Counted from the first letter of the stretch, positions 19,038 to 44,330 are shown. The stretch: DNA of 64,000 nt from Lingula anatina (GCA_051362555.1 CM120640.1:38728788-38792787); one strand, 5' to 3'. Program-made: numbers and translations. Notes: generated by a model from the letters alone, not told the origin.

Positions 19038-20751
19038 TCATTTCTTAGCTATAGCAGGCTGAAGAACAGGCTGTTTGTCTCCATAGCAATGTTTGTTCTT
19101 GGGGTCTCTGTAAGAGTTCTCATGCTGCACACTCTGAAATTTTAACAGAAAAACTTATATAATGAACTGAATAAAAGTTCTATTACCTTCGCTTGCAATG
19201 CAGGGAGTAGCATGGAAATAAATGACAGCAAAAATATATATAATGACACTTCTGCCTATGTTTTAAAAGTACTAATTCAAATGTAAATTGATGATGAAAG
19301 TGTAATTTGATATTATTTGTCTACCATGATTATGATCAACATATAACTGTAATGTAAAATATTTACTTATTAAAATTTAGACAACTGGAATGTCTTCTCT
19401 ATCTCTTTACCTGTGAGTTAGTTCTGCACTTGGTGAGGCAAAGTTCAAAATGGTCTGTGATTGAGGCATAAATTTGACTAAAGCTGGAGTCCACTGCTTC
19501 ACTTAATATCTTCCGTAGTAGCTGTTGCTGGAATCAAAAATCAAAGGCATTAATATAATAAGAATACATCAGACAAATCGCATCCTCCTGTATAATTTCT
19601 TATAGTTGCATATGCTATAAAATAAAGGATATATTTAAAAAAAAGGCCTTCATGAATTCCCAAACTATTGACTGCATCTACTTGTGAAAATATATCATCC
19701 ATTCATTTCTATTAGAGAAACGTGCATCTGATTCAAAAAATTCTAAAATTTCTGATACCATATTTTATTCATAAAAATGCCTTCTCAATAAATACTAATC
19801 CCAAAATGTTTTATACCTTTTCAGGATGCAAGCAACAAGACACGCAGTACTCATAAAGAGCACAGCAGCCCCCCTCAGTGCAGGTTTCACAGGTGTAGTG
19901 TTTTGTAGATCTGCTCAGAGTATCACAACAAGATCCTGGCAACAGGTCAGATCTATCACACACATATCCTGGAACCAATAACAGTTTATACAAAATGATG
20001 ATAATATATTGATATTTTTTGTGTTCAAAGTAACTATAATTACCTCATAAATCTTTGTTGGTTTATGTGCATTTATCAACTACTGAATGAAATGTGTTAT
20101 TCTCAGGTGCAAATTAAAATAAATATTAATCTCAAGATTTGAAAGTTTAATTCTATGTTGTCCACAACTCCTCAAACACGTACAAAAAATTCCTCCTAAA
20201 TATAGCCCTAAAAGTTTTTAACTTAATGAAAGTCATACCTCTGTCATCAGCCACTAAAAGTTTCCCCTGAACTGAATTTCTGCAAGTTTTTATTTTGCTT
20301 GCATTTGCACTTTCAAATTTGGGCTGCCACTTGAACTGTTCAGGAGCTACACGTAGGGGTTTCCTAAGCCGATATTCTTCTTGAGTTGAAAAGTCTTTTG
20401 GATGCTGCAAATAAACCAAGAATAAGTTGAGTATGACAAGCCTTATGAACCGACCATGGCTCGAAGAGGATGAGTAAGTAAGTAAATTGCGTTTTTAGTT
20501 TATTTAAGTATTTGAGAAATTTTTACAAGGTTGATAATACCTCCTTTACACGGGCGCCTTTAGCTTTAGACTAGTACACAGGCTTTCTCAATAGCGCGAA
20601 AACCGACCAAAAATAAAATATTTTATCATCGTAACTTGTTAATGGACGAGCATTTTACCTGCTTGTATATATTAGCCAGGAAATACAGAACCGACAAGCC
20701 AAATACCACAGCTAGAAACCATCTTCTTCGGAATGTTCTTGAGTTAAACAT
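19038..20751 (-). CDS. SPRING1: SREBP pathway regulator in Golgi 1 (SPRING1/C12orf49, UPF0454), 5 coding exons
   Basis: Exons 20659-20751 (MFNSRTFRRRWFLAVVFGLSVLYFLANIYKQ, type II TM), ~20239-20405 (CRNSVQGKLLVADDRG), ~19816-19969 (YVCDRSDLLPGSCC...CCALYEYCVSCCLHPEK), ~19411-19527 (DHFELCLTKCRTNSQ) and 19038-19133 (SVQHENSYRDPKNKHCYG...*). These are signature motifs of the family. Confidence 0.95.
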
Positions 20752-21080
20752 TGAGCCGACATTTCACGGACTCGCAGGGCTGTGTTGTGCTTATAAACAA
20801 AGTAAACATGACAAGGGAATTCTTTAGTTTCGGAAATATTTAATAAATTGGAGGTCTACGAAACACCTTTAATTTAGTAAAATAGGTATTCTCAATAAAA
20901 TATATATTATTTTTGTAACAATTTCAACAAAAGTATCTGTAAAAAGTCGTGCATATTGTACTAAGTAATACGAAACTAATTCTACGGTTGATTCTTAACT
21001 GGGGAATTTGGAAATCGTGATGTACAAGTGTAGTGATGATGTGGTTCAACTTATGATTCTTCGATGATTAATTCACTGTA
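20752..21080. promoter_or_regulatory. Short, locally CpG-richer bidirectional promoter shared by SPRING1 and RNFT
   Basis: Divergent genes with ATGs 691 bp apart (20751 and 21442). A probable non-coding RNFT first exon ends at donor AAG|gtaacc (~21081). CpGs are more frequent at 20430-21330 than in the flanking gene bodies. Forkhead-like GTAAACA at 20802. Confidence 0.6.
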
Positions 21081-21441
21081 AGGTAACCATATGGTATTGA
21101 TAGTATAAACATATTTAAGCAGTTGAATATTATAAGTGCCATTTCATTAGGTAAATAAAACAGACGCCTACTCTTGCCCTTGATACAAAGTCAAAACTTA
21201 CTTTCGACAGTACTAGGTTTATCGATAACTGGTGTTAAAATTAATCTTAGACTGATAAAGTCCAAAGTTTTATACATGAAATGCATCGTAATCAAGGACT
21301 TAACACACCAGGAATCTGTCGAATATTTCATACAAGTGGATTTTAGCTGTAAAAGTATGTATTTTTTAACTTGTATCAACAGAAACTGGGTAAACTTACA
21401 TCATGACTTATTACTTTCAGTTTCAGCCAGCAAATAAGAAG

Positions 21442-22414
21442 ATGGCAGAAGGGAGGCAACCACCAACAAGGACATTTTCATGGAGCTTGGATAACATGCC
21501 TGTCAACATGCCCAGTATAAACGCTCAGGCTAGACTGCCAGGAAATATTGGGAATGTTTTGAGGGAGCTGGTCCCTGGCCTAGAAGGGCGGCCGTCATCA
21601 ACTCCAAACCCGTACCTGCAGGCACAAGCTCAAAGAGCAGCTGATATGTCAAATGAAGCCCCAGCTTCTTCTTTTGTAATAAATATTGGACAAGACGGTC
21701 AGGTTCAGAGAGATGGTATTTTGAATGTTGAACAGTCTGTGCATTCCGCTGAACCACAGTTAATAGGTGGTGGTCAGCTGGAAGGAGGACATTCTCCTGA
21801 ACCCAATAATACTGCTGCTGAAGACGGTGGTCAGGAGGGTCAGCATGGCCATACACATGATACTGACAACAGAATGGACTGGAGACAGGGAAAGAAATGG
21901 CTTGAAAGAAGTCTGATTTTCATTTTGTTGATGCTGTTGAAAGTGACATATAATCATCGCCTGGGTAAGCATTGGCACTGACGGTGCCTATGAATCTATA
22001 GACCAGGGTTTTAGGTATAATTTTTCAATATATAACAATATACAATATATAAACAGAGTCATATAGCTGTGGATGATGTTTTAAATGATCTATGATAACT
22101 GAAAAAAAGCGGAATGAAATTATGATCATCATTATGATCGAATTTGTTTTATTCCCACTAGAAAGAAATTTTGTAGAGAATCTGTCATTTCATATCAGAA
22201 ACATTAAGGAAATTGTAGAATTAAGTGCTTTTATGTAGAATTGTAAAGTACATTGTTTAATTGCACATGCAATATATATTAAGCCCTATATATGATTATT
22301 TAATAAATCTATCATTAATATCTTTACAGGGTTGCTTGTTTTTGTTGGGTTGTTTGGGACATATTACCATGCAAATACAACTGTTAAAAAGCATATTGCA
22401 CAACAAAGGGTAAG

Positions 22415-22462
<48 letters not shown>

Positions 22463-24312
22463 CTTTTCATTAATGAGTCAAAAGAACCATTCTTGGAGGT
22501 TGATCAATTTTTTTTTTTTTTTCTGAAGTACTGTTCATTTGCCTGAAAAAAAAATACACAATGGAAATATATTTGAACTTATTTCAGGATCACCATAATT
22601 CTGCCCGGTCACTGCTGTTGTTGAGTTGGATAGTGATTTTCTTATGTGGAAATATTGCTCTTGTCTACTATGTATTTGAAGATCAGAAGCTTTGGTTAGC
22701 GTAAGTACTTTCCATAAATACTTCAAAATACTAAATTAATTCTTCTTACAACTTTTCATAAATTACATTAAATTACATAAATTATCATTAAAAAGTTAGA
22801 AGTACACACATTAGTTTTTGTCCTAAAATGTTTTTATAATACAATTACTTTTTTCTAAAAATGACATTATTTTTGAAAATTTTCAGTCTAATCTTTAACT
22901 TACCTAAAGTTGGCCGAATAGACTTCTGGACATTACTATGGGTTGTTGCCATCACAGACTACATTGTCAAATTCGCTTCTATCACTTTAAAGGCTCTTAT
23001 AGCCATGCTGCCTAGAACCTTTATACCTTATAAAAGAAGGGTGAGTTATGATCTTATTTCAAAGCAAAGCAGTTCATTGCCTTGTTATAATCATATTATG
23101 TATATATTATACCTTTTGCTTTCTCAAATTAAAAAAAATTATTTATTTATTTGTTTATTATTATTATTTTATTTTATTTTTTTTTTGTAAAATCTTAGGA
23201 TATAACAGTTATTAAAGGCAGTATTTGGTATAATTTCCATGATGCACTTAAGTAATTTAAGCATGAATTTTTTTCAAGGGCAAATATTATATGTTCATAG
23301 AAGAGGTGTCCCAGTGCTATCGTTGTGTTACTCCTATTGTGCCATGGGTTTATTTCCTCAAAGACACAGAACATGGGGGAGAATGGTTCTCTATGTTCCT
23401 GCTCATTGTATATTTTATTGCAAAAGTAAGTCTTGTGATTGACACTGTATATACTGCAGTATTTACAAAACAACTTTCGTTTTATAGTAAACTTTCATCT
23501 GCAATATAAGGTGTATTATTAGTTTTAAGATAATTTCTAATAGTGTCTTTAATTACTAATATAAATCATTATGCTGTATTTTCTCAACGATGATCATTTA
23601 AGGTAAATCTTGTTGTTTTATTCAGGGCATATTGAAAAGCTAAACATTAAGCTGTATGTTTATCTTTATCATTTTTGATTGTAGGCCAACCTCGTGTGGC
23701 AGAAGTCAAAAGATTTATATAAAGCCTGGAAAAAAGTCTGTACAGATGTGGTAAGTTGATGAACAAGTGTATGGTCTTAGGTATTTATTAGAAACCAGTA
23801 TCAGTATATGTGGATGTCTAAACAAGCTATTGCATATATTGGGACTGTGATATGTGTGTGTGTGTGTGTGTGTGTTTGTGTGTGTGTATTTTCTATCTTT
23901 TGAGAAAATGGGCATGTTAAGATATAATTGCTGTAGCACAATGTATATTCTGTCTTTTCCTTGATAATTAATTCAATCAGCTGCTAAGGTTAATTATTGC
24001 AATCCAGTTGGAAGTAGGTGCTTTAGGCTGTGTCACCAACTTCATTCCCATTTTCTGAAGGTGACTTGACAGAATTCAACATATCCTATCCAACCAAATT
24101 AACACTGCTGATGAATTTATGTACTGAACATTTTGTTTTGTTGCAGAATTATGGAATATCCCCAAGTAGAGAGGAGATGTCAGTGGCTGGAGGTGCATGT
24201 CCCATATGTCAAGATGACTACAGGGATCCAGTTATGCTGGCCTGCAAGGTAAGTGTTTCTACTCTGTTTAATGTGTGCTTTTAATTTGGACAGCATGTTT
24301 TTATTTTCCTGT

Positions 24313-24359
<47 letters not shown>

Positions 24360-24712
24360 GTGCATACTTACTGTTGAAGAATATTTAATGTTTAATTGTA
24401 AACTTTGTGCAACTTGTTTATTTTGTACAGTATAGATTTTTGTCAAAGTATTAATCAGTACGCACATGCACACACACAAACAAAATGAAAAATTGAAATA
24501 CATATACACTGACCTACAAAATATTGATAGTTTTCCACCACAGAAATGTATTTAATAATATTTTTCATTTCCTTTTACAGCACATTTTCTGTGAAGACTG
24601 TGTATCAATGTGGTTTGATCGTGAAAGAACATGTCCTATGTGTCGTGCCAACATCGTAGACAACCCTCTCTGGAGGGACGGAACCACTGTTGCTTCCATA
24701 ATATTTTGGTGA
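21442..24712 (+). CDS. RNFT2: RING finger and transmembrane domain-containing E3 ubiquitin ligase (RNFT1/RNFT2 family), 8 coding exons
   Basis: Exons ~21442-21964, 22331-22409, 22588-22700, 22888-23040, 23279-23425, 23685-23750, 24147-24248 and 24581-24712. TM segments include FWTLLWVVAITDYIVKFASITLKAL and GKYYMFIEEVSQCYR. The C3HC4 RING is [39 protein letters not shown], and the C-terminus is WRDGTT. Confidence 0.92.
22417..22459. repeat. (CT)n microsatellite in an RNFT intron
   Basis: Visible directly. Confidence 0.95.
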
Positions 24713-25794
24713 AGTCTCATTTTATCTCTTGATGTGAAGTGAAGAGGTATTTATGATTGCAAATATCACCAGCCAGACTCCCGAGCAGTTTCTGTTAAGA
24801 TGGCAACTGTCTAAAATGTGATTTTCAGCATTTAGTTCCACTTTTTTTTACTTCATTTTTCTAAAATGTATGTATAAATTTACTCTGCCAAATATTGGAT
24901 GTGCTGTGATGGAACAGAAAATAAATGAGATTTTGACATGCAGTTGGTTTAAAAGGCAGTCATTTAAAAGTCTTTCTAGTTATTTCTGTTAACTTCTTGG
25001 CCTGATAATGCATGTCTGTTGAGCTGTTTAAGAGTAATAAAAATCCACTGTAGATTAGAAAGCATGGAGATGGTGCAATAAAAGTTTCATTAAAATATCT
25101 TAGTAAGTGGTGTTTTTAAGCAACTGATATGTTTTGCATACTATCTAACAGAATATGAATACTGTGTTTGGTCCTAAAGTTTAATATGTTTATTTATTTA
25201 TTTATTTATTTATTTAGTTATTTCACAAAGTGGCTGATACTATATCATCACTTGAGGTAATACTTGAGAAGATAAATACAGCTGTTACTAGGTAGATATA
25301 ATGTGCTTTATTTAAAAGGGAGTACAGGTTGAAATTACATTTAACAGCAGGCAACTTGGTGTATGTTGAAACATGTATTAGTTGGATGTTTGTGTAGAAC
25401 CAAAAACAATGATATAGGTTATTATAATATGATTTACATATTATACATGTAGATTGAATTTAAATTTACATTCCATTAAAGTTCTTGGCATGTGTTATTG
25501 TTCCCAGAATTGAGAAAGCTTATGCCATTTAGAAAATATTTTTAGTCATATTATAGAAATCTTAAAAGTATGTCCGACTTGTTAACCACTCGTCATTCAT
25601 TACTTTATTGACTATTATGGAATTTTTATTTCTTTTAGTCAATTACAAATACAATACAATTCAGACAAAGGCAAAATTGAGTTCATCTTGATCTCACATG
25701 TTGAACTAGTTAGTACCTCTGATTTTAAGCTTTCCATGTTTCATAGTGCATTGACACATATATAAGTAAGTCCTAGGTTACCAGCTGACTCTTA

Positions 25795-25997
25795 GGGTGC
25801 ATTCACGATGAATCTATCATACTAGCTAGTGTGCACTAACTCCATGGGAACTCTTGCTGAATTCAATCAGATTAACAGGCTTTGAGTAGAATACAGAAAA
25901 GTTGGTGATTATACGAGTGTGTTGAAACAAGAGGAGATGTGTTAATTTGATGACATTCAGTACTTGCTAGTATGAGAGATTCATTGTGAATGTACCC
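25795..25997. mobile_element. PIF/Harbinger (Tourist-like) MITE, 203 bp
   Basis: TIRs gggtgcattcacgatgaatctatcatactagc / gctagtatgagagattcattgtgaatgtaccc (3 mismatches), flanked by a TTA target-site duplication on both sides. Confidence 0.85.
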
Positions 25998-28900
25998 TTA
26001 GGCAATGAAGGACGAAATCTATAATAAATAAATAAATCTATTAAGTATCAGTGTGGATATTGAATGATAAGAAGAATTATATTAATCAAAACAGAAAACA
26101 TCAGTTTAAGCAGATAATTAAATGAAATATTTATTAAGCTGCCAAATATATAATTTGTTGGGTGATTGATGCATTGCATTAGGAGAGATGCAGAATTGAG
26201 CCAGAGAATGTGTTGGAAAATACCATGCTATGTATAACATTCTGATATATAAAAACAATTAGTGGTCAATTCTATGCCATGCTGGCAGTGTTAACGTGAT
26301 AAATACTGATCTCTAATCAAGCTGTTTATTGGCTGACTGAATGTGAAAAATGAAGGTGAATAGCACCATGACGTAATATTATATTTGGCAGATAGTTTGG
26401 CTCAAAACCTTACTACACTAGAATTTGGCATATTGCTTTAACAAGTGACTTTCTGACCTTTTTCTTGACGTTGATGTCTTATGAATTGTGACACTAGCTT
26501 TTGGTCACTTTCTGTATAATTACACTTGTTGCATAAAAAGTAATAAAAACTGTTAGTTAGAACCACTTTTATTTATTGTAAGTCATATGCTTATTAACTG
26601 GTATCACCTCTGTTCAAATATTCTCACTGGCAAAAGGGGTTGGTTCTTTTTCCCATTGGCTCAGATAAATGTTTATACAGTAGACTGTCAGGATGGTACA
26701 CATGGTTTAAGTATTCAAATTTTCTGTTATGGACCAAGCCTCTGAACTCTGAAAAAAATAATTGATGAAAAATTATCCCATTTTTCTTTTTTTCTTTTGA
26801 TGAATTAGAACAGCTAGCAATTCGAAGTAAGGTGGGCATAAAAGTTAAAAAGTGTGAATGCAAAATTGATATAAATTGGGGAAAACTGTTCCAAGATGGA
26901 GATTGTATTAAAGAAAAAGTCCCGTTTTGTTCATTTGTAAACAACATCGAAATACAAGATGTGAACTAGTGTGTTACGTACCTGTACCAGAGTGTTAAAG
27001 TTTTCTGTGTGTTTCTGATTAGGTAGTTAACTACAGTGCCATAAAACTTCCAGATGTTTTTTTTTTTTTTTTTTTTTTTTTTTTTGGGGGGTGGGGGTGG
27101 GGGGTACTTCTTATATTTTCTTTTCTGTAGGGAACAGAGATTACAACTAAATGATATTTTGGTATTTTTCTGTTTCCTTCATTATTGCCTCAAAATAGGG
27201 TTATTTAGACATGAGCATACGTGTTGCAATTGATTTAATATTTACTGAATATTTAATCCCAATAGAATAAATTATTTTTTCAATACGTTTATTGTGAAAA
27301 CTGTATCTTTGTTAAATTATTTACCCTGTGTACAGGCACTTAACTGTAAAATGTCAGGGGGTCAGGACTTGCATGATGGCTGTAAAGATTAAAGCTGAAA
27401 GGAAAAACATTGCTTCAGAACTTGCTTTTATTGAGGTTGAACAGTGTATTATTTGTTTTTCCTCCATGTCTCTTTGTGTTGTGCATGTGCATGCATAAGC
27501 ATTGTGTAGTTGCAGGTCAATGGTTTTTACTATAATACTGTCCAGGGCATATTTATTTGAGTATATCTCTCATAGTTAGGAAAAAAGCTATGCAAACACT
27601 CCTTGTCTTTATTAGCTTTATGCAGCTAAATTGCTGGAATGAATGCTAAAATGAAAATAACTTTTACAATGAATGGATCTAATGAAAAAATGGAATGGAT
27701 CTAAAAAAAAAAAAACAAAAACAAATGAGCTTTTTTAATATTCCTAAAATTAACAAAAATGAAAATAGATTGGTTTAGATTTTTTGTATTTTCCTTATGA
27801 CCATAAATTAAATAATAAAATTTACAACAAACTAAAGTGAATAATGTAACTCATTTCAATTGTTTATTTACATAATTTTTTGGTTGACTTCAGAGATGAC
27901 TTTTGAAACTTTTTTATTGTACAGTACATCATAGTCAGTTCAAAAAGTTACTTGCCTTTGGTAGATTAGAATATAATTTTATCAGTTTGATTGTATTCCT
28001 GTGACCAATGCTACAAATCCCCCTCTTCCTTTTTAACCAGTGACAGTGGATTATGAAAACAGAATTCATTACAAAACTGATGTTTGACAACAATGTGTCA
28101 ATATTATTGTTCCTCTTCCTCCATACACAAAGATGAAAGGAGATCCAGGTTAGGGCTGTCAGCCCCTGGTCATGACGTGTCCATGATGTGCACATGCACA
28201 TCAAAACATCAGCATCACACACACACGCACAAAAAAAAAAGAAAACAAAGCCAAGAACAATAGGAGTCTACGGTAAAGCACCAAATAGGGGTGCTTACAA
28301 AGAAAGGCAATAAAAACAAACATCGCAGACAAAAGCTTATATTTCAGTGGAGGAAGAGCAGCACCTTCTCCTTGGACACATGTAGGGGGGACTCAGTACA
28401 TGTGGATCAATACAATACAATACGAGACAGTAGTGGTTGGCTTGGTCCAGGGGCAAGAACTGCCAACATGTCAAGTGCAAGCTGTGCAAAAAGTTCTGGG
28501 GCACGGAACAGACTCTACACAATTTGATATCTCAAAAGAGGGGATGCACCTCAATTGACTTGGTGGAAACTTATGGGACTGTTTGCACACTTATTTCCTC
28601 CTCCCACTGCCACCCTTGGCACTTTTAGCACACGTGCCAACAATAACATGTTTTGACACATTTATATACTCTGCATTGTTTGTTTTCAATTTATGAAAGC
28701 TATTGAAGCTTCTAATTAATCTATAGTCTGTCATTTGTTAGAGTATTAGGCTCTACTTTTCAAGTATCAAGTTACACTTTTTAGTGTCATAAACCCTCAT
28801 GAACTTATTGCTTTAGTTGTAATATACCTCTTTGAGAAGGTATCATTTTCTTGTTATGAAATTCTTATATAGATTACTAGTGGGGGTCATCTGGTGCACA

Positions 28901-29280
28901 TCTTACTTTTGTTTCTTAAGGAAACAGAAGTAATCCTCAACACCTGAGCAATAGATGTGTTTTCTTCCCCATTATTCATCATCTGCTAGCAAAATTTTGG
29001 TCTGTAACTGTTATGTTAGGTTCAAAACAAATGTTCACGCCATTTATTAAAAAATAATCTGGTCATTAAAACTTTTTAACAAGATATTATTTAAAGGTAC
29101 AATTGTGCTAACTTGATTTCATGGAAGTTGCACTGTTATATTGCTGAGAGCTGAAGGAAGTAAATAACCTTTACTTCAAATTATTCTAAAACAAAGTTAA
29201 GTGTTGTTTACTTTATTGAATTATTTATTTAATCATTTTTTATAGTATTTTTGAAGATATATATGTAAGATCCTATAAAA

Positions 29281-29333
29281 ATATAAAAAGCATTAATTTT
29301 ATTATAGTATAATAAAATTAATGCTTTTTATAT
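29281..29333. repeat. Perfect 53-bp AT-rich palindrome (26-bp arms, 1-nt spacer)
   Basis: atataaaaagcattaattttattata-g-tataataaaattaatgctttttatat. Confidence 0.95.
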
Positions 29334-32300: not shown

Positions 32301-35300
32301 AAAATACAAGAGGCCCACAGGTGGTTAACATACCTTATGGTGGCAGAAATCTGTCCATGCAACAAGATATCGATACCCGTACCATTTACTAGATACCGGT
32401 ATCTGCCCTATGCTTAGCTGTACCTTTTATGAGCTCTTAAAGAGCTGATCAGATTGCATTGTTCAAAAGTATGTGTGCGTGCCTGTTAACTCAAAAATAC
32501 TTGTTCAGATATGTGTTCACCATCAAAACATTTAAGGAATTGGTTCATTTTGCAGTGTTTCTGTATGTGATATAAGTACTTTCTGGAATCTGAGACATTT
32601 TATGCGATTGCTATATTGTTTTTGTCTTAGGGTTTGGTTGGTATATGTGTATTTAGTGCTGTTTTGTTGTGAAAAGCTCATTCACAGCATCAAATTATTT
32701 TAAATAAATGATGAAAGAGGGAGGGATAAAAAGACAACATTTCTTTAGACTAGATGCTACATTGTTTAATTGAAAATTTACCTATAATATCCCTGAAAAA
32801 AAATTTAAAAAGACGCCCTCTATAAAATGTTGCTTCCCTTTCTCTCTCTCTTTCTCTCCCCCTCTCTCTCTCTCTCTCTCTCTCTCTCAAGATACTTAAT
32901 CCTTACCCCAGCTGTTCTTTCTAATGGGAAGTTAGTGTCCCCATATTTAACCTAGTGTCAGTGTCACTGTTGGGAGTACGTGCTATGAAGAGATGTACCA
33001 ACTTTTTTTATCGTAAATATTATTAGACCACTGCTAAGTTAAAACGATGTTTGATCAATGATTTTGTTTTATTCATCAAACTGTTGCACTTGAAGTTATG
33101 AAATTTGTATCAAATTATTTTACCTTTAATGCCGACAGTGCGATTAATTTACATGATTGATGACATCAATTATATTTGTTGTCACAGACTCTGTTTATAT
33201 TAACTCAAATGTCACAAGCAGACAATCTGAGTAATTCTCCATCAGATCCCCAGGCAAACAGTATTTATTACTGTCAGCCTAATTGGGTCGGCTGTAATAA
33301 GTTGTATATACAGTTAAGTCTTTGACTCAAAGCTGATTTACCCTTAACATTAAGGACATGGGGATTACATCGATCATTTCATTTCTCCTGACAAAATTGA
33401 CCGTCCTTACCTTTGTCTGTCGGGAAGCTGTTTACCAAGATTCATTTGGATCATCTGATGATCTGGCAGGTTGTCTTGAAGGTTAGGATCTATACAGATT
33501 GATACTTGGTCAATTATCTCTCATATGTTTACAGGCTGGGAATGTGAAGGCACAGATGGAGGGAAGGGGGTGGGTAGGTCAAAGGAAAAAAGGTGGAGAC
33601 AACTATAGACTATAAATGAAAGTAAACTGAATGGAATGTGTTCAGAGAAAATACTTGCATAGTTTCAAATACTGTATCAAATGGAAAAAAATAATGAACA
33701 CTAACTTCAAAGGTTTGAATACCCAAGTAAACATTTTTAATTGAGCAAAAGACATTTTATCCAAAAAAGAATACATCTGTTTAATCTGTAATTCTTGCAA
33801 TTATCCAGTTACTAGTAATGTTTTTTTTAATTTTGATAACTAAAATGAAGATATAAATGACAAAAAACTTTCTCTTTCCTTTAATTCAATGTTATGCAAC
33901 CACCATTACTGTGAGGATGGATTACACGCATGTATTTATTTTATAATACCAATAATAGTTCATGCTGTTTCTTGTATATTTAATCATGTTAGCCTGTTGG
34001 TGTGTTTCCCAGAAAAAAAAGTAAGTAATGGCCCCCTGCTTGTTACAAATCCTGGTATTGATCATGGTACGCAAACACATCCTGTAGCAACATACTGCAC
34101 GTCTAGACCTACTTCCTGATACTGGTTGCGGTTTTGCTGAAATGAAGGAGTTTATAAGTGTTTGGATTTCTTGTGAAAATTTCTTCTGTATTTGTGTGAA
34201 AAACAAAATATCAAGGACTGAAGACTGTATGAGAGGGGAGTCATCCAAAGGCCACTTTGTACCTGCCATCTCATCATATATCTTTAGATATCTTTCTCCT
34301 TGAAACTGGTCAAAATTGTGGTTTCCTGCCAGTGCTGCAGTTGTCGCTTAGCAACTGTAAGCATTTCACACTCTGGTCTATTGATAGGGAAGTGGTTGAC
34401 CTCAGTATCTTTTCTGTTTCTTTTTCTTCTTCAGTGCACTTTTCAATTAAGAAATATGGAGAAATTTGATATTGGAATTATATAACAAAACTTGTGCATA
34501 GGCCCTCTAATCATTATTTATTCATTTATTATTTTGATCCAGAAATGTATATCTTATGTGTTGGAAATATTCTTTTCTCTCACCTTCTGTTTTTTAATAG
34601 CCTTAACTCTTAAAATAAGTATAGCTGATTTTTAGTTTTAGCCTAACCTGGTACCCCAAAAACTTTATCAATGTGGCTAAAGAATAATTTTATGTAAAAA
34701 ACAACACAGCAAAACATAGTCATCAACAAATGTAAAAACACTGTAATGTAAAAGCCATACTTATAAGTACATTATTATATTTGTCAGTAATTTCCAATTT
34801 GACTGGTGCTAGGTAGTTGCGTGTTCTGGACTGTTGCCAGTGTAGAGCTCTCTACTAGCAGATAATAGTGGGAAGAGCAAGATGGAATGGACATGATATC
34901 TGCATTTTTCTTATCAGCACATACAACAAATGAAGCATGCTGCCAAATTATTTCGAACAGTAACTACGCAATACGTCTCATTTTGCGGACACTGGGTGTT
35001 AATGCAAATGAGCAGCCATTTTGAATAAAAAGAGATGAGGATTTTATATTTCATGTCTTCTGAAAGTGGGTGTTTATCGAATTATTGAATTACCTTGGAT
35101 TGAAAATTTATTGAGAAGTTATATTACCTAACTTAAACATTATACATAGATGTTTTATACATATAAGCTTGTTTATTTATTTGGACATCTAAAATTTAAC
35201 TCCTTTTGCAGTGGCAACCTAATATTCAATAATTTAATTCTACCATGTAATTATATGCACTTAAATACAAAATAAGTAAAGTAATGGAAGAGTTATAGTA

Positions 35301-38300
35301 AAATTACACTACTGGCAGTCTTCCAAATAGATAAGATTCACAGTTTGGATAGTTATCAACATGTAGTGTACTTGAAGGCTTTCAATAGGCTTATGGCATT
35401 ACTTTATTGAACAGAAAGGCGGTTTTTACCTTTTATTTTTTAACTTTTATTAATTACCTCTTTTTTATCTTAATATATTAAATTAGAAATGTGATTTTTG
35501 TGTTAAAATTGTTTTAACTTATTGCGTTCCAGTGACAGTACAGAATTTCACCTTAAAACCCCCATTATTTCTGTTTAGTGTCTTTAGAAAATGTACAGAT
35601 GACTACATGTTGTAGAGGGGCAGAGTAGCAGGCATTTCCACGTTCTACTCAGAATACTTAATTATCTCTTTAATAGAAATTTACATTCTCCAAATTTTCC
35701 TAGCTGCTATGTCATGCATGGTTCCCAAAGCAAGCTTTGAACACAGATTAGTGATTTGACACATAGTAATAAGCCTGTTGCTATGTCTATCAGCTGACTG
35801 CAATTTACTAGAAACCCTCTGTGAAAGTTGTACTAGTATACTTGTATCTATACCATTTAGTCAAAATGCTTTATGGAATGAAACATTTTGACCCAGTTAC
35901 ATTTATGAAAACCCTAAGGATTCAACACTTTCAAAGATATACTAAGAAGTAGGATACAACTGAACGAAGAAACTTTGAACTGTTTCATGTTTCATAGTCA
36001 TTTTGACGTAAGGTGAGCTCATGGTTTATTGAGAAGACAAACAAAGCCACAAATATTTTGTTCCCAAGTGTTGTAAAATTTAGTACCCATGTCTTTTTGT
36101 TTTCTTATGTTATCTATAACCCGCATCTTCGTGGTTAGTACGGTCATTCCGTCAATATAGAACCCTGAGCATATATTTCCAGATTGTATTGTATTCAGTT
36201 TATGTATTTTAGATATAGATTTTGCGTCTTCACAAAAGTAATGAAGTAAAATGATTATGTTGTAAATGGCGGATAGATTAAGAAAAAGTTGAAAAGTTAG
36301 TTGTATGATTGATCAATATTATACAACTTAAATACCTTGTAAAAAAATTAAATTTATAGGTTTTGAAAAATCGAAATTCAAGATCACGACGAGAGATGGT
36401 TGTGCATTGCGATCGAGACGACACAGAACTTTTGTAAGAAACTGCTAAGCACAATTTGACCGCTTTTTGTAATGAATAATGAAGTGAGATTGAAATTTAG
36501 CAAGGGAAAAGTATAACCATCGAGATCAAAATTCGATCAAAGTAGTATTTCGTTTCCAGCGTTTTTGACTAGGAGAAACTTGAGTTAAAATTTAGAATAA
36601 CTGTCTGCAATATACAAATACAGTACTAGAGTAAGGTACGTAATGCATTTATACGCAACAGGATTTGGGGCGAAATTACTGTAATTAAAAGGAGAAAAAT
36701 GCTTGTTGGGAGCATTCCCAAGTAATACAGGTGCCCGACACCTGTCAAAAAAGCCATCGTTTACAGCACCAGGCACTTACAACTCCAGTTTCTCTCTGCA
36801 CCTGGAAACACCGTTTTTTTTTACACGGCAGCCGAGTATTGTTATTCATGGACCGCTGTATGCGCTTCATAGTAATATATGGGAGACCTCTGATACTATT
36901 TCTTGTTTGTTATCTGTTAACTTTGAAGCCTTAGATGTTGTAAATGATAATATATTACCTTAACTTCATTTTTAAAGAAGTAACGAGTGAACAGGAAAGA
37001 ACGCGCCGAACTTCAGCTTGTGATATTTCAAAAAGCACACGGTCTAAGTCAGTGAGATTTATTATTATATTCTTTTTGTCTTCGATGCAAATAATCTTTT
37101 AATTTAGAAGCATTTGTAATATTTGTCTCTGCTACACAGCTGTTGTAAAAGCTACTGAGTCAGTTTTTTTTAATGTTTTTAGAGGCAACCCCAAGTCGGT
37201 ATTAATTTTTGTAATTTTGTTAAAATGTGACGAATGATTTTTTCGGAAATTTAAGTTTAAAGTATGTTGCGTTTTTTTTCTCCGCCTGCTATATTCTTTA
37301 ACATAATTATTCACATGTAGAGATAATCGATTGAAAAAAGACCATCTTTTTCTGATTCTGATGTAAAATTATCGAAATACTAAAACTAGATATTTCGTTG
37401 CGTTATATTTATTTTGAAGAAGTAAAATATTTATACTTTGGAGAAATGATTTTTTTGTGTGTGTTGCTAGACTTCGGCGAAAAGTTACAGGATACAAAAT
37501 GTACAGTGCTCTCTCAAATCGCATGCGTAATAAACCAAACCCGCTCGATTTTCGTAATCTATGTGGCATCGTTGTTTTATTAAATAAGTTTATGTGGCAA
37601 TTTAGTAAGATGTAAAGGAATGCATTTTAAAGTGCAATAAAAAGTTTGAAATTGATTCGCTAACTGGACAAGACATTAAAAACGGCAACATCTTTTGCTT
37701 AAAGAAAATAGAAAAATAATAGGCATTGAAATCTCCTCGAAATGCTAAAATTATGTATGTATTCTCAACACCCCAAAAAGTATTTCGTCGACAAATATTG
37801 AATCTATTTAAATAAGATATAAATTAAAGCATAATAAACTGATTGTGAAATAAAAAATTGATATAGAATGTTCACTCAATCTGAACATCTGACATAAATG
37901 ACTTATATAACTGCCTTTATAAAATAGTGTTATTCCGTATTTTTCGTCCATTTATCACGCCCATATTTCTAACATCCTAACATCTGAAAACAAAAACACC
38001 AAGCTTAATGCTGTGTTCACTGATGCGAAGAAATTTTGTTACATTGCCATATGGAGCATAAAATAATCAATTAATTTTTCCCTATATCTTCTCTCTTTTG
38101 TTGACTCTTTAAGTGGGAATTTTATCGATAGATAAAGTTTGCAGGTTTGTGTTTCTTTTCACCAAACCCGTACAGTTATCTACACAATAATTTTGAGCTT
38201 ATAGATTTTTGTCAATTATACAGGCAGAATGATATAATATAGGTAAGTTTTTGTTTGTGAACATATTTCACCAAAGAAGAAAAATAAGACAAAAACGATG

Positions 38301-39922
38301 AGTAAGAATATAGTTTTTTATCGTAAATGAGTACGCCGTAGACGTCATCGCAGCAATGAGAAAAAAAAGATACAGAAGTAATTACGGAATTATCGACCGC
38401 TAGCTCTCTGGTATTAGTCACTGTAAAATGAATCATCGGTGTAAGTGCTCAGGACACTTCAGGTCAGGCAGATCAACTCTGGCACACGGACACGGAAACT
38501 AGGAATAGAACGCAATTATCACTCACTTCGAGCTTTTCGCTTTTCAAGTACCGCCAGTATGCTCCGATCTAGTTCAATTATGCCACAGACACAGTTTTCA
38601 ATACTCTCGTCTTTGTCGTACTGAATAATTAATATTTCACCAATTCCGCATTGCTGCAATTTTCGATGATGAAAAAAAAATTGCTGCTGTCCTGAAATTG
38701 ATTGCCGGAATTAAACTTCCAGGTAATCGCTTTTCTGAAAGTCTTTGCTGTACCTGGGGGCTCTCTCTACCTGTGTCCCTGCTGTCATTTAGAGCCTCTT
38801 AGCAGCAATAACGGAGCGCTAATCAGGCAGAACTTGTTCTCCAGGAACTGTTTTTTTCCCCATGTCAACTCGTAACATTGTGTGCGTTGCTAGGAGTTTG
38901 ATTGAAAGAGCATATACATAGCCCGAAGCGTCTTGTGGAAGAAATAATGTTGTGCAGCCGATTGCCTTGATTTTTTTGCATTAGGTTTTATGTGCGTTGT
39001 TCAAGTGGGTCGATATAATTTTCACACCTCATGGCTACGTTTTGATTAGCCCGGGTAATTACACAGCACGGTCTTGTACAATGTGAAATAAGGTTAGCTC
39101 AAGTCAGTTTTGAGGAAGTGCAGACGGATGTGAATAAAATTCCCCTGTTGCTTTCATTTATTGTTTCTGCAATCATTTACATTTAAATGTGCACTTTAGA
39201 GTGATTCTGCTGTTATTACACTGTTTGCAATTGTTTAGTTATTCGTTAGTATTCAAATTATGTTATTTGCCTTACTGTTCGCATAAGATTTTACTGTTCG
39301 TATAAGGTTACCAGGTATCTTAAATAATGTTTTCACAGTTAAGAACATAAAACCTTCTCTTATTACCAATTTGTGTGACAACGGTTGTTGTTGAACAAAT
39401 GACATTTAAGAATTGAATTTTGAAAAATATTATATTTTTGTTATGAGATACCCCTTTCCTACTCAATTTTTTTCCTATCAGAAGTGAAATACGAAACAAA
39501 TATTTCTAAGAAAGTTCGAGGTTGGAGACAAAGGCGTGCTGAAGCTAACATTTTTGTATTTGTTGAAATATTGGTAGTTCTTTTCTTTGGGACATTTTTG
39601 CATAACTCATTTCTATGTAATATCTTATTTCTTAAGCAATTTCATCAATATTGATTTATTGCTGAATGCTCAATCTGTTACTGATATTTACTTCTCTGTG
39701 TGTGACTTTATGTATAATGTGCTGTTTTGTCAAAAATTTTTGAAGGAGAAATATAATTCAGGAAATAAAAAAATATCATTTTCTCTTTTTCGTCGAAAGT
39801 TTTCTCTTAATGCATTATAGACTGAGATTTGTTATTGTCGATACCTTCAACTTACTATTTCAATGAAATAAAAGATGAATAGAAAATCTGGTTTGGCTTG
39901 TTAAATCGCAGTAATCTCCTTA

Positions 39923-40150
39923 AGCCTAGATTACGGGCGCCGTGCGATGAAATTGTCCGTACGATTTTTTTTAATGTAAGGAGCTACGGACTACGCCGAG
40001 TATGTCTACATTACATGGCCTTAAATCCGTACGGTTCCATGCGATTTCGCACGGCCGCCGTCTACCTCCGCTCAGACGCCGTACGAAAAGGGTATTACGG
40101 GCAGTATACGTTGGTCGTACGGGCATCGCATTTCAAATGTAATCTAGGCT
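39923..40150. mobile_element. PIF/Harbinger (Tourist-like) MITE, 228 bp, CpG-rich
   Basis: TIRs agcctagattac / gtaatctaggct plus subterminal gcgatg..ccgtacga / tcgtacgg..catcgc. TTA target-site duplication at 39920-39922 and 40151-40153. Confidence 0.85.
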
Positions 40151-41979
40151 TTACCTAATTGTTCAATTATGGGAGATTAGAATAACCTTGATTATTATGA
40201 AAAAAATTTAAAAGAACAATATTTAGATATGTATCAGAAGGGTTTTCTTCGTGGTCAATTAAATTGTCAAATTTGATTGGTATTTGTTTACGGGATCGAG
40301 CAAGTGAACCGAGTTACAGTCACAAATCTGGGAGGAGAAAAGAGACCGTCAAATCATATAAATTATAAAATATTGGCTTCATGAAAAACATTCAACTTTA
40401 AACTATGGGTTAGAAAAGTTAACCGAACCCTCTTGTTTTTCATTATCAACTGCTATTAATACAAAGGTGACTCTAATTTTCGAATGAAGGTAACAAAATC
40501 AGAATACCAGGCCTATGATCATAGAAAATTGTGTATTGGCACGGCGAATGAAACTCAAATATCGCTGTCACCTTATCACCAGGGTTTATCAGTTCACATA
40601 GGTAACCGTGCTCTCTTCACTCAACCTTTGACGCGCGAAACGAAGAAACAGATAACAAATATCTCATATGATGATGTGTACATGCGACGTTGGAAAATTA
40701 TGTGATGTGATCTTTCAAAAGAGCATTTAGGTATTTCCTGTACTTGTCTGACTCGTTTTACAACCCGTGTGCTTTCACAACCACTCTTGAATATGCGTCA
40801 AATTTCATTATCAATTTCGGTAGGTTTTTGCGTATCGCCAGATGTGTTATGATATAAGTGACATAAGAGGGAAAATATAAACATGATGATGATTCTCTTA
40901 AAACGAAAGGTTGTGTTTATAAGAACCCGCAAACCTCACTCCGTTGTTAGCTAAAGATTTCCCCTTTGCCCGTTTTTAACGCAAATTTTGTATTTTATTT
41001 TGCATTTTTTTCACGGGTTTACATATATTATCTGATGATCGTTACCCGATTTTCATGAAATTTTTGCAATTTTATTCATTAATACCATTAGGCCTATCTA
41101 TAGGCGTGTCTTCGCAAAATCACCCATATCATCACATAAGGGCCTATCTGTGAGTCATAAATGGTGGTTAACATTGTGGAGGTTTCAAACTCCAAAAAAG
41201 GCAACTGATACACTTGAAGTGGATCGTGTCATCCCCTTATTATACCTGTTGGGTAATTTTAGATCCTGCACATTTTTGGCCTTGAACCAAAATTGATAAT
41301 AATGAGCGATCCCACAAAATCGCATTAGGAGAAACCTAGCATTTTTGTTAATCAGAGGACACGCAAAGCTCCGTCATTTATGTGACTTTTTTCTTGTCAT
41401 TCTATATCGGGATCAAGGGAGAGAAATTGAGTAGTATCGGATACACATATCCCGAGCACAGTTGACAGATCGTTAAAACAGTGAAGTTATGCCAAGCGCA
41501 TTCGACACGCCCAGGCACGCGCGAAACGTTACCTACTCGTCATGGACATGCCACATTGTTAACCTTTTCGAACAGTATTAGTCTTGATATAAACCAAGTT
41601 GTTACATTCTGGCTATTTACGACACCCTTATCACGTTTCATTTTCTGATAATTCCTGCTTTAGTTATTTGACAATGTAACTTTGTTAACTGCTGAATGTG
41701 ACAATAGTTTAATCAATTACGACATTTTGTTGTTGGGCGTGGTCTTTCTAGTTCTCCTTGAACTGCTCTTATCAATCTACGCATCAAGCCACGAATCCAC
41801 CCGAACTATTTCAAACATACCGCTCTGAAACGAATTTCTCTTGAACTTTGTTAATCGACAGAAAAAAGAGGATATCGACTTTAGGCGTTAGGCGCTGAAA
41901 TGGAAACTATTCATGTTTCATTTTCATAAGCAGTATAACTTACAAATTCAACATAATTCAAGACAATGTACAACACTTG

Positions 41980-42848
41980 CAAGCATATTAAACAAAAGTT
42001 ACTTTAATAATATATTTAATTTCTTTTACAGTGAAAATAAATATTGCACCAATTTTCAGTTTCGTAAAAAATGAGATCGCGTGAATCTATAAACAATTTT
42101 CATTTTTCTGATAACAGTTTAACATAAAACGAATCATAATTCTGACAAGAAATTATCTTATACTTTGTACAACGAATAAATGCTACGACATGAAAAGTGA
42201 TGCCATAGACTAGACTGTATAGCTATTTACATGCCCATGTGGGTTCGTTAAGTTGCGAAAGCGACTTTACAAAACAAAACACAGGTAAACCAAGTTCGAC
42301 CTAGTTCCGCCTGCACTGGCTTCTAAAGTAAATATTACACAATAAATGAACTTTGGGCTGCACCAAACAAAAGTTTACGTATAAAATTCAGTTCTTATAT
42401 ACTGTCTTCATCCAGTGAGACCAAACGAATAATGAATAGCAATATATATCATGCTATTCGAGATCATTGTGAAAATACTGTCAAGTTCAACAAGGACTAT
42501 TTTGACAGTCTTGCGGCCCTGGGAAATGAACGCACCTCCTCGATAGAAAGTTTATCAAAACGAGCCTCTTGACAAAATGGGCTGTTTGCCAAACGACAAC
42601 ACTATTATTCCAACAGGTGAATTGCGAATTGGTTTTAATGTCGTGACCGGACTGTCAGATCCTTTGACTTGGAGAGACAGCGTAGCACTAATGTCTTTTT
42701 TTCACCACACCACTTGCAATACGTTTTTTTCCCTCGGGATTTTATTGCAGCACTGATTGTCAATTGTCATGTTAGATTAGTTGTAGAAGTGTCCTGTTGA
42801 CAGTGTGCCAACTCGCAGCCTGACCCCATGTCCCCAATTAGAGTTGAC
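41980..42848 (-). other. Putative non-coding exon 2 (3' UTR) of the BH3-only gene
   Basis: Strong acceptor tctatttttgtatttgtag|G at 42849/42848 pairs with the donor at 43701 (853-nt intron). ATTAAA signals at 42015-42020 and 42003-42008 are followed by U/GU-rich sequence. The 3' end is approximate. Confidence 0.5.
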
Positions 42849-43722
42849 CTACAAATACAAAAATAGACGCCATGGTAAAATCTACATGAAACATATTTGA
42901 TTGAGCATTTTCATCTCGGTGCTGGTATTGACATTGAAGAAAACCTGCTCTGTCATGTTTTCTGAAAGCTAGACAAAAAGTCAAGGTCGCCGTTTTCTAC
43001 CATTTATAATCATCAACGTAACAAGTTTCTAACAAAGCGGGGGGTAACGTCAAGACCTTCGTCATTACTTTCCACAAATAAATCCGCGAAACTGAGAGTT
43101 GATTTAATGCAAACATGTGTCATATCATTTACGCTGTCGCGTGGCCCTGGTTCACGGCTCGACGACGTGGTAATGTTTACAAACATTGGCACGTGGCCAG
43201 TGGAAGGGAGATGTGTTATTTTTAGACGAGCGCGCTACGTTTTCTGGTTCATAGATTTGCTGTGAATACCCTTTGTTTAAGGGCTGTGTTTGTCAATTTC
43301 CTATTTTTCTGGAACTCGTTCTGGTGCCATCCAAGTTAGTGCCAGTTCGTCGGGTGTATTGTCATTAAAGAATAGTTCTGTGTCGAGACCACAATGGATT
43401 TATGAAGTACATTGAGTAATAAGTATTGTCATAGTAAAATAGCCCTACACGGACTATGGCAGGATGACAAACCGTTTACCAAGGATGGCCTTATGTTGCT
43501 ATGACAAGGAAACAGACTTACACGCGGGACTTTTTTCATTGTTTTTGGAGCATATTTGTTAGCCTCCCATATATACCTGTTTATTTGTAAGCAGGCCCTG
43601 TCAATTTGCGACAGAACGCCCTCTTTAATATTGACACTTTTTAAATTTTATTAGATACATTTATATTATAAGTAAAAATAACAATATGACATAATTCTTA
43701 CCTGAATTCCAATGGGATTACA

Positions 43723-44004
43723 TCATCTGAACATAAATTGAATATACACCCGTAATATGTGCTTGAACAACACAGTCTTGTCCTCGAGGTAAAAAATACA
43801 ACGCCAGTCAGCGAAGAAATTTGTCCATCGAATTTTATGAGACAGTGTCATCTCTTTATCCAGGTCATCTCCTATTGTACGCAGTCTCTCTGCCACCTCG
43901 CGTAAGTGTTCTTGGAAAGCAGGTGACAATTTATTCTCTCGTTGCCCGTCACTGTCGGAGGTGCTCATAGAGCCTTCTCGGCTGTCTGAATTTTCCCTTG
44001 ACAT
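43723..44004 (-). CDS. 93-aa BH3-only Bcl-2-family protein (candidate HRK/DP5 positional ortholog)
   Basis: ATG 44004 is in good context (caacATG). A disordered S/D/E-rich N-terminus precedes a canonical BH3 LREVAERLRTIGDDLD (L-x3-G-D-x-L at ~43858-43896) and a hydrophobic/basic tail VLFKHILRVYIQFMFR. No BH1/BH2 motif. TATA and CCAAT lie upstream, and a consensus donor CAG|gtaag follows 21 nt after the stop. Confidence 0.8.
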   Translation of the reverse strand: MSRENSDSREGSMSTSDSDGQRENKLSPAFQEHLREVAERLRTIGDDLDKEMTLSHKIRWTNFFADWRCIFYLEDKTVLFKHILRVYIQFMFR

Positions 44005-44119
44005 GTTGAGAAAGAGATATTGAATCAACTATGGAGGTGTATCTAATGGCCTGTGTATCTTCAGTCTATCATAGTCCTATCTCGCTGTCATATTCTTTCA
44101 CCAGTGTGTATAATCTTAT

Positions 44120-44330
44120 TTCTAACCAGAAACATTTGGATCACCTTTGTTTATAGCGCGAGTCCAGACCTGCGAATCTCATTGGTCGAAATAGCGCATG
44201 ACTGCGCGAATACGACTGGCAAAAGTCCAGGGACTCCACGTGCTTTTGTTTGCATTTTGTTAGGGGGTTTTTGCGAGGTCGAGTGAGAATGGGTTCCGCC
44301 ACGAACATTTTCTGGGGGTATTTCCATTTT
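44120..44330 (-). promoter_or_regulatory. TATA-type core and proximal promoter of the BH3-only gene
   Basis: TATAAA at 44150-44155, CCAAT at 44181-44185, E-box CACGTG at 44237-44242 and Rel-like GGGTATTTCC at ~44316-44325, in CpG-rich sequence. Confidence 0.6.

Follow-up and report, generated by a model that had tools for sequence, protein, structure and literature searches.

The window analysed here is a 64,000-nucleotide stretch of the genome of the brachiopod Lingula anatina (GCA_051362555.1 CM120640.1:38728788-38792787; G+C content about 34%). It carries SPRING1, an RNFT gene, and a small gene whose 93-residue product contains a BH3 motif. An earlier reading of the sequence (hereafter the original prediction) held that these three genes form an ancient block that matches SPRING1, RNFT2, and HRK at human 12q24.22. 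We examined the gene models, followed their transcription in four RNA runs under the same species label as the window (X11, X14, X15, and X17), and compared the block with RNFT loci and published gene maps of other organisms. The first two genes and the region between them are laid out as follows (UTR, untranslated region; aa, amino acids):

19038..20751, minus strand: SPRING1 coding region, with the ATG at 20751 and the stop codon ending at 19038; 207 aa
20751-20659, 20404-20239, 19968-19817, 19527-19411, and 19133-19038, minus strand: the five SPRING1 exons, with AG/GT borders throughout
20752..21082, no strand assigned: shared divergent promoter region, with the SPRING1 5'-UTR (lower part) and RNFT exon 1 (non-coding)
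21421..27200, plus strand: RNFT exons 2-9 including the 3'-UTR, with the ATG at 21442 and the stop at 24712; 438 aa, eight coding exons
21442-21964, 22330-22409, 22588-22700, 22887-23040, 23279-23425, 23685-23750, 24147-24248, and 24581-24712, plus strand: RNFT coding sequence, with AG/GT borders throughout

Exons 2-5 of SPRING1 matched the Pfam profile PF10218 (SPRING1) colinearly at profile positions 3-20, 22-75, 77-114, and 115-131 of 131, with E values of 0.042, 1.5e-13, 3e-07, and 6.1e-04, respectively, and two of these four pieces scored above the cut-off (51.4 and 31 bits versus a gathering cut-off of 22). All four introns were present as RNA joints, and in the stranded runs the first mates lay on the plus strand only; the joint 19966>20237 has the length of the intron 19969-20238 with an offset of two bases. 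SPRING1 proteins are about 205 aa long, with a membrane anchor at the N-terminus and, after it, a luminal domain rich in Cys. The product of exon 1 has a basic stretch and then a hydrophobic run of ~20 residues, in the manner of an N-terminal signal-anchor, and that of exon 3 is Cys-rich, as a domain following the anchor. The gene in the window is a real gene and belongs to the SPRING1 family (PF10218, SREBP regulating gene protein), and the colinear match over four exons upholds its predicted orthology to the human gene.

The RNFT model is equal in length to P0001 (NCBI 'RNFT2-like [Lingula anatina]', 438 aa) and identical to it at 432 of 438 residues; P0001 was also the single match, 1 among 342 candidates, in a search with the protein encoded by the first coding exon. 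The six differing residues indicate that the window and the NCBI model derive from separate individuals or assemblies. RNA joints supported five of the seven coding introns, and the other two lie at repeats that were skipped in read mapping. The 3'-UTR runs to ~27.2 kb, with RNA depth persisting into the bin 27002-27668. Hydrophobic windows, at residues 206-214, at 255, and from 326 onward, point to membrane spans ahead of a C-terminal RING; Pfam matches to the RING lie in the final two exons, and the invariant Cys and His columns of the RING are present in a 23-sequence RNFT alignment. Of 2644 candidates in a search with residues 150-438 of P0001, 90 reached E≤0.001; they come from cnidarians, spiralians, a priapulid, arthropods, echinoderms, hemichordates, amphioxus, Tetraodon (RNFT2), a plant, and a green alga. 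All informative names among them were RNFT1 or RNFT2(-like), the remainder being 'hypothetical', 'unnamed', or nameless. We built a maximum-likelihood tree from 32 named sequences of the 90, chosen for taxonomic spread in a set that does not include vertebrate RNFT1. It tracked the species tree: the plant and the alga fell outside, then came chordates, cnidarians, ambulacrarians, and protostomes, with Lingula within Spiralia beside molluscs and Tetraodon RNFT2 next to amphioxus. This phylogeny, which had been proposed as a check, gave a single metazoan lineage with vertebrate RNFT2 inside it and, together with the names of the 90 relatives, supports the predicted orthology to the human gene. 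It fits a single-copy gene that would be co-orthologous to vertebrate RNFT1 and RNFT2, the step to co-orthology being deduced, as RNFT1 is outside the tree set.

SPRING1 and RNFT stand head to head, with 691 bp from ATG to ATG (21442-20751), just as predicted, and the RNA reads confirmed their introns and strands. The coordinates and orientations in the original prediction proved correct for all three genes. The non-coding exon 1 of RNFT ends at 21077 or 21082, as judged from two GT..AG joints in its 5'-UTR. The joint 21077>21421 was read 1, 4, 0, and 1 times in X11, X14, X17, and X15, respectively, and the joint 21080>21419 (equivalent to 21082>21421 when the cut is shifted by +2) 9, 0, 4, and 2 times. 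In the stranded runs X11, X14, and X15, the bin 20751-21000 contained only reads with the first mate on the plus strand, that is, minus-strand RNA of the SPRING1 5'-UTR, and the bin 21001-21250 contained only reads with the first mate on the minus strand, that is, RNFT RNA. Because of this strand switch and the RNFT 5'-UTR exon, we conclude that the two genes share a bidirectional promoter, with start regions no more than a few hundred bases apart at ~20,760-21,080, where the original prediction had placed it; this fits the common definition of such a promoter. The CpG observed/expected ratio is 0.87 over 20752-21441 versus 0.46 for the whole window, and both genes were expressed in all four runs.

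Two side observations concern the flanks of this pair. Downstream of SPRING1 on the minus strand lies a TBC RabGAP gene (Pfam match at 13502-13846), which seems to start only ~300 nt past the SPRING1 stop; its ATG is at 18738, its first exon extends to a donor near 18633, and the RNA joints 18204>18632 and 17697>18059 join further exons. Since no canonical AATAAA was seen between the SPRING1 stop and this ATG, the SPRING1 3'-UTR and the first exon of the TBC gene may overlap or be connected by read-through. On the RNFT side, run X17 had many differences from the window within 25001-27000 and 21500-22000, each shared by all of its reads there or almost all (e.g., 13 of 13 at 25038 and 16 of 16 at 26200-26290), whereas the other runs mostly agreed with the window at these sites. 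X17 probably represents a divergent population or a cryptic species under one species label.

The third gene lies tail to tail with RNFT and has the following features (ORF, open reading frame):

43702..44125, minus strand: exon 1 with the entire ORF (coding sequence 44004-43723, 93 aa); 5' end placed from the TATA box
42849..43701, minus strand: the sole intron seen, 853 nt, GT..AG, within the 3'-UTR
42720..42848, minus strand: exon 2, wholly 3'-UTR; acceptor from the joint 42846>43700 (cut +2), 3' end estimated
44150..44242, minus strand: putative core promoter, read by eye, with TATAAA at 44155-44150, CCAAT at 44185-44181, and CACGTG at 44242-44237
43858..43896, minus strand: BH3 motif V-A-E-R-L-R-T-I-G-D-D-L-D, residues 37-49, the sole strict-pattern match in the window

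The ORF starts with the ATG at 44004 and stops at 43725-43723, and the splice donor CAG|GTAAGA lies 21 nt past the stop codon, which leaves the whole ORF in exon 1; exon 2 has an AATAAA at 42746-42741. The joint that skips the 853 nt (CT..AC, equivalent to GT..AG on the minus strand) was covered by 3, 1, 2, and 0 reads in X11, X14, X17, and X15, respectively, amounting to six reads from three runs of three studies, all with first mates on the plus strand. In the same order of runs, the depth in the bin 43677-44343 was 0.98, 0.31, 0.55, and 0, again with the first mate on the plus strand only and thus from minus-strand RNA. In the exon 2 bin 42343-43009, the depth of such reads was 0.15-0.37 in X11, X14, and X17. 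Transcription is low, at about one third of the depth of the RNFT 3'-UTR in the same runs and ≤1 in all four. A search of run listings for the BH3 stretch returned no RNA run, and expression became visible only from the raw reads mapped here. The 400 bases upstream of the ATG (44005-44404) have a CpG observed/expected ratio of 1.07 and a G+C content of 0.41 versus 0.46 and 0.34 for the window, and are a small CpG-rich island, as expected of an unmethylated promoter in a CpG-depleted genome. The only variant seen in the ORF, at 43816, falls in a third codon position and is synonymous by codon reading. The BH3 gene is thus real, transcribed, and spliced. It is apparently unannotated in a collection of 15 billion proteins, the NCBI Lingula protein set included, because the exact 93-aa sequence is absent from this collection and a word-indexed homologue search with the ORF at near lengths gave no candidate.

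To recognize the motif, we used a strict PROSITE-like pattern for the core of the BH3 signature, with four hydrophobic positions and an invariant Leu and Asp. In the six-frame translation of the window, this pattern occurred once, in residues 37-48 of this ORF, and only 1 of 300 random windows generated from a first-order Markov model contained any match; a loose pattern was uninformative, with a mean of 0.58 matches per random window. When 1.84 billion representative proteins were searched with HMMER, a single one passed E≤0.001, the unnamed Logan sequence P0091 (96 aa, E 2.4e-12), which is 43% identical to the Lingula protein over residues 15-88, with 35 identical columns in the pairwise alignment. 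The identical residues include V37, A38, E39, L41, T43, I44, G45, D46, and D49 of the motif, and W60, T61, F63, W67, R68, C69, F71, Y72, L73, and E74 of a second block that covers the C-terminal W-R-C-x-F-Y-L-E stretch. A single-sequence AlphaFold (AF2) model with a mean pLDDT of 66.7 has a disordered N-terminus and helices at 28-51, 54-70, and 77-92. The only Pfam family hit was BID, which matched the BH3 stretch below threshold in both the window protein (E 0.052) and P0091 (E 0.0092). A profile of the two sequences aligned with 29 PDB sequences at E≤10, among them 18 of BAX, 2 of BID, and 1 of PXT1, at their BH3 regions; no PDB match was significant, the best BAX chain having an E value of 0.061. 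The named ESM-Atlas neighbours of both proteins all belong to chordate BH3-motif families (PXT1, BIM, BMF, NOXA, and BIK, at 0.76-0.88), and three unnamed chordate clusters of 72-99 aa scored 0.88-0.90; we take these neighbours as leads only.

The BH3 regions of BAX and BID were thus the best, though non-significant, matches to the motif and the residues after it, whereas the Lingula protein has no other Bcl-2 homology region. We considered and rejected the idea that the W-R-C-x-F-Y-L-E stretch is a shortened BH1 of the NWGR type and the protein a cut-down Bax-like one: neither Pfam Bcl-2 for the protein nor any PDB sequence for its C-terminal 41 aa matched at E≤10, and the BAX alignments end at residue 61. 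Judged by its sequence, the 93-aa protein is probably of the BH3-only type, and a BH3-only function is a fairly likely prediction. Such a protein would act as a death trigger by inserting its amphipathic helix (residues 28-51) into the groove of a Bcl-2-family member, and its two C-terminal hydrophobic and aromatic helices could target it to membranes.

The same genes recur together in mammalian locus lists. A hippocampal genome-wide association locus at chr12:117,323,367 is labelled 'RNFT2, HRK, FBXW8, TESC' in the relevant part of PMC6445783; FBXW8, C12orf49, and RNFT2 are mapped to one locus in an excerpt of PMC9200849; a cattle single-nucleotide polymorphism is listed with SPRING1/C12ORF49, RNFT2, FBXW8, and MED13L (PMC8650139); and a goat interval contains MED13L, HRK, SPRING1, FBXW8, and RNFT2 (PMC12686773). 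On a wider scale, rows 1465 and 1582 of supplementary file 7 of Simakov et al. (2013) place TMEM118 (RNFT2) and C12orf49 on ancestral linkage group 3, an assignment that covers Trichoplax, Nematostella, Lottia, and human. That the two genes share a chromosome is therefore an old state, however recent or ancient their adjacency. The Lingula locus resembles human 12q24.22 in having SPRING1 next to RNFT, with a small BH3 gene coming after RNFT. We take human SPRING1 and RNFT2 to be head to head and HRK to be convergent to RNFT2, between RNFT2 and FBXW8, so that the minus/plus/minus orientation would be shared as well. It differs in that the Lingula distances are tens of times smaller, FBXW8, TESC, and MED13L are outside the 64-kb window, and no similarity in sequence links the third gene detectably to HRK. 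Co-listing of the genes in human, cattle, and goat papers supports the predicted match to the human block in part.

Is the SPRING1-RNFT pairing itself ancient? Conserved pairs are enriched in head-to-head orientation and in spacers of <1 kb, which Irimia et al. (2012) explain, in the text portions considered here, by shared promoters. The Lingula pair resembles their microsyntenic pairs (e.g., HSPE1-HSPD1) in being head to head, with a spacer well below 1 kb, and in occurring in two distant phyla. It is unlike them in being missing from two other animal contigs, which came to light when we scanned metagenome contigs with the RNFT alignment. The scan matched 235 stretches with 187 relatives, of which 80 loci (410,303 bases) were kept; most are short (1-3 kb) and transcript-like, and few have usable flanks. 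Two animal loci, L062 and L080, reach far enough upstream for a judgement. In L062, whose RNFT exons are closest to stony-coral proteins, the ~6.3 kb upstream of the first coding exon holds a same-strand CAP-domain gene and no SPRING1. In L080, whose RNFT is closest to a millipede protein, the 10 kb upstream holds a RING/B-box/bromodomain gene head to head with RNFT and no SPRING1. This neighbour (L080:1010-6964, minus strand; a RING, two B-boxes, and a bromodomain, TIF1/TRIM24-like) is a different divergent partner of RNFT. SPRING1 was not found in the 2.9 kb upstream in L037 or the 4.4 kb upstream in L019 either, and a Pfam scan of 135 upstream ORFs of L062, L037, L019, L068, and L080, with 38 further L080 ORFs of ≥55 aa omitted, gave no SPRING1. 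When Lingula SPRING1 was searched by tblastn against all 80 loci, the best E value was 2.3 and no hit lay beside RNFT. Some intronless loci at 27-29% identity (L041, L043, L052, L063, L064, and others), whose best named match is a plant protein and in which tblastn gave no SPRING1 within 10 kb, are seemingly relatives from protists or algae and were counted neither for nor against a bilaterian block.

The SPRING1-RNFT block is therefore not universal; at the same time, a lone cnidarian and a lone probable arthropod cannot settle the state of the bilaterian ancestor. The head-to-head pair could have arisen independently in the Lingula and vertebrate lineages, eased by a common ancestral chromosome. 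Such an origin would sit well with the placement of both genes on ancestral linkage group 3 and with the coral-like and arthropod-like contigs that lack the pairing. We also found no report of SPRING1-RNFT as a conserved microsynteny in the literature searched, nor the pair in the main text of Irimia et al. (2012), whose supplements may list it. We nevertheless regard independent origin as very unlikely: the same partner in divergent orientation across a very short spacer in two phyla is far likelier by descent, head-to-head short-spacer pairs are just those enriched among conserved pairs, as excerpted from the same paper, and little can be read from arthropods and one coral contig, as pairs are often lost. 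Ancestral adjacency is quite probable, because the occurrence of the same divergent partners, only a few hundred bases apart, in both a brachiopod and mammals is far more readily explained by inheritance than by convergence. It would have been kept because a break within the few-hundred-bp promoter region would damage both genes. The claim that the pairing has persisted since the protostome-deuterostome split thus has the Lingula adjacency and the mammalian locus lists behind it and the L062 and L080 contigs against it.

Whether the third gene descends from the same ancestor as HRK is a separate matter. Like HRK/DP5, it has two exons, an ORF wholly in exon 1, a few 3'-UTR bases before the sole intron, and a TATA box and an E box upstream. 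The products are alike in having ~90 residues, with the BH3 within the second fifth of the chain and hydrophobic residues towards the C-terminus, and the Lingula gene is convergent to RNFT as HRK is taken to be to RNFT2. The layout is documented for rat dp5/Hrk, whose gene has two exons, with the ORF in exon 1 together with a small part of the 3'-UTR, and a TATA box and an E box in the promoter, according to an excerpt of PMC2685101. The Lingula intron, at 853 nt, is in contrast much shorter than the 18.9 kb in rat. We estimate from the motif frequency that a strict BH3 in a transcribed, conserved ORF next after RNFT on the convergent strand would arise by chance roughly 1 time in 1000, and the shared 3'-UTR-intron layout would lower this estimate further. 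On position, orientation, gene architecture, and size, orthology to HRK can be put forward tentatively, a little short of an even call. HRK may then be an ancient bilaterian BH3-only gene that has stayed tail to tail with RNFT for >500 million years rather than an invention of higher vertebrates, a view that we hold as possible only. It would go with an equally conjectural divergence so fast that only the position and the layout of one coding exon and a 3'-UTR intron remain.

Several observations weigh against this descent and against the wider match to 12q24.22. The Harakiri family, presumably Pfam PF15196, had no match at E≤10 to the window protein or P0091, and no HRK chain was among the 29 PDB sequences at that threshold. 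HRK has a C-terminal transmembrane tail anchor with a clean membrane span, whereas the Lingula C-terminus is aromatic and amphipathic, includes charged residues, and lacks such a span; helices are predicted at 54-70 and 77-92, yet the best 15-residue Kyte-Doolittle hydropathy mean is only 0.68. Surveys, as represented by parts of PMC6124574 and PMC8998228, failed to detect Hrk in zebrafish, Xenopus, or axolotl and deemed it restricted to higher vertebrates. These surveys were BLAST-based, and a fast-evolving 90-residue protein is easily missed, as the lack of annotation of the Lingula gene itself attests, yet the prior is lowered. Pfam found no domain of the FBXW8, TESC, or MED13L type in the window. 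No BH3 pattern, strict or intermediate, occurred in the 80 metagenome loci, a result of little weight, as their downstream flanks are ≤10 kb and shorter than the Lingula gap. Neither was there a description of this block or of an invertebrate HRK in the literature that we searched; the supplement of the Lingula genome paper mentions microsynteny and not RNFT, C12orf49, BH3, or Bcl-2. Of the predicted convergent BH3-only gene after RNFT, the ORF, strand, expression, and strict motif have therefore stood, and the HRK sequence support has not appeared.

These points can be read in two other ways. The gene may be a true BH3 gene that arose in lophotrochozoans or in brachiopods, unrelated to HRK, with its place and layout coincidental and BH3 motifs arising repeatedly. 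The absence of a Harakiri match, the finding of just one relative in 1.84 billion representatives, the lack of Hrk below amniotes reported in the survey parts cited, a C-terminus unlike a classical anchor, and a BH3 stretch at least as similar to BAX and BID as to any other chain all agree with this, as does the suggestion, in part of the review PMC8998228, that the BH3-only proteins of different phyla are perhaps convergent. What makes such an origin somewhat doubtful, though far from negligible, is that the strict motif is expected only ~0.003 times per 64-kb window, so that a convergent BH3 next to RNFT is improbable by chance, and that few genes have a single coding exon with a 3'-UTR intron just past its stop, a layout that rat dp5 shares. 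Alternatively, the transcript is real and its 93-aa product is not a regulator of cell death, with the BH3-like helix serving another role or the RNA being mainly non-coding; a depth of ≤1 in all four runs, family matches that all stay below curated thresholds, and the modest AF2 confidence are in keeping with that. We consider this unlikely, given that a protein of similar length is 43% identical over residues 15-88, inside and outside the motif, that the sole ORF variant is synonymous, that the strict BH3 pattern is fully met, and that all named language-model neighbours are BH3-motif protein families. Taking the locus as a whole, we see three real, expressed genes, the divergent SPRING1 and RNFT and, ~15 kb downstream, a convergent two-exon BH3 gene, and we lean towards an ancestral bilaterian neighbourhood that survives at human 12q24.22; the small protein would possibly come from the same ancestral gene as vertebrate HRK.

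The gap between RNFT and the BH3 gene and the outer parts of the window contributed the following:

27700..42719, no strand assigned: intergenic gap from the RNFT 3' end to the BH3 gene 3' end, with almost no RNA depth in the four runs

This gap had been given as ~17 kb; as measured, it is 19 kb from stop to stop and ~15.5 kb between the transcript ends (~27.2 kb to ~42.72 kb). The shared enhancers that the original prediction raised as a possibility for this gap are speculative. A Pfam scan of 150 of the 195 window ORFs of ≥62 aa, most of the 45 omitted being contained in the three gene models or in the Helitron-like ORF described below, gave no match at E≤0.001 for the gap ORFs and no domain between 25 and 43.7 kb. 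A short expressed piece at 40066-40152, with first mates on the plus strand, loose ends on both sides, and a consensus that varies between reads and runs, looks like a repeat or a SINE-like element carried in other transcripts rather than a local exon. Pfam identified only four neighbours in the window: a branching enzyme, the TBC RabGAP, an aldehyde dehydrogenase, and a Helitron-like ORF. The Core-2/I-branching enzyme ORF (1-1314, minus strand; 438 codons) is open at the window start, and aldehyde dehydrogenase exons occupy 53194-54671 on the minus strand; to our knowledge, neither matches a human 12q24.22 gene. The 20 kb on the far side of the BH3 gene contain no F-box/WD40 gene. A frame of 1163 codons at 60510-63998 on the minus strand, which runs past the window end, encodes PIF1-like helicase and endonuclease/exonuclease/phosphatase domains, suggesting a Helitron-like mobile element that may be intact.

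Conserved head-to-head pairs are a known class, to which SPRING1-RNFT by itself adds one example, with a hint at co-regulation of a Golgi SREBP-processing cofactor and a membrane E3 ligase. Of greater use is the small gene: an expressed, conserved, unannotated brachiopod BH3 gene at the place of HRK and with its layout. Little is known of BH3-only triggers in animals other than vertebrates, nematodes, flatworms, and Hydra, and reviews, in the parts considered, do not settle between an ancient and a repeated origin. The question of their origin now becomes a concrete comparison, in which the place beside RNFT can be inspected in other genomes. If HRK is indeed ancient, the SPRING1-RNFT synteny would provide a direct route to the BH3-only genes that are 'missing' from fish, amphibians, and invertebrates.

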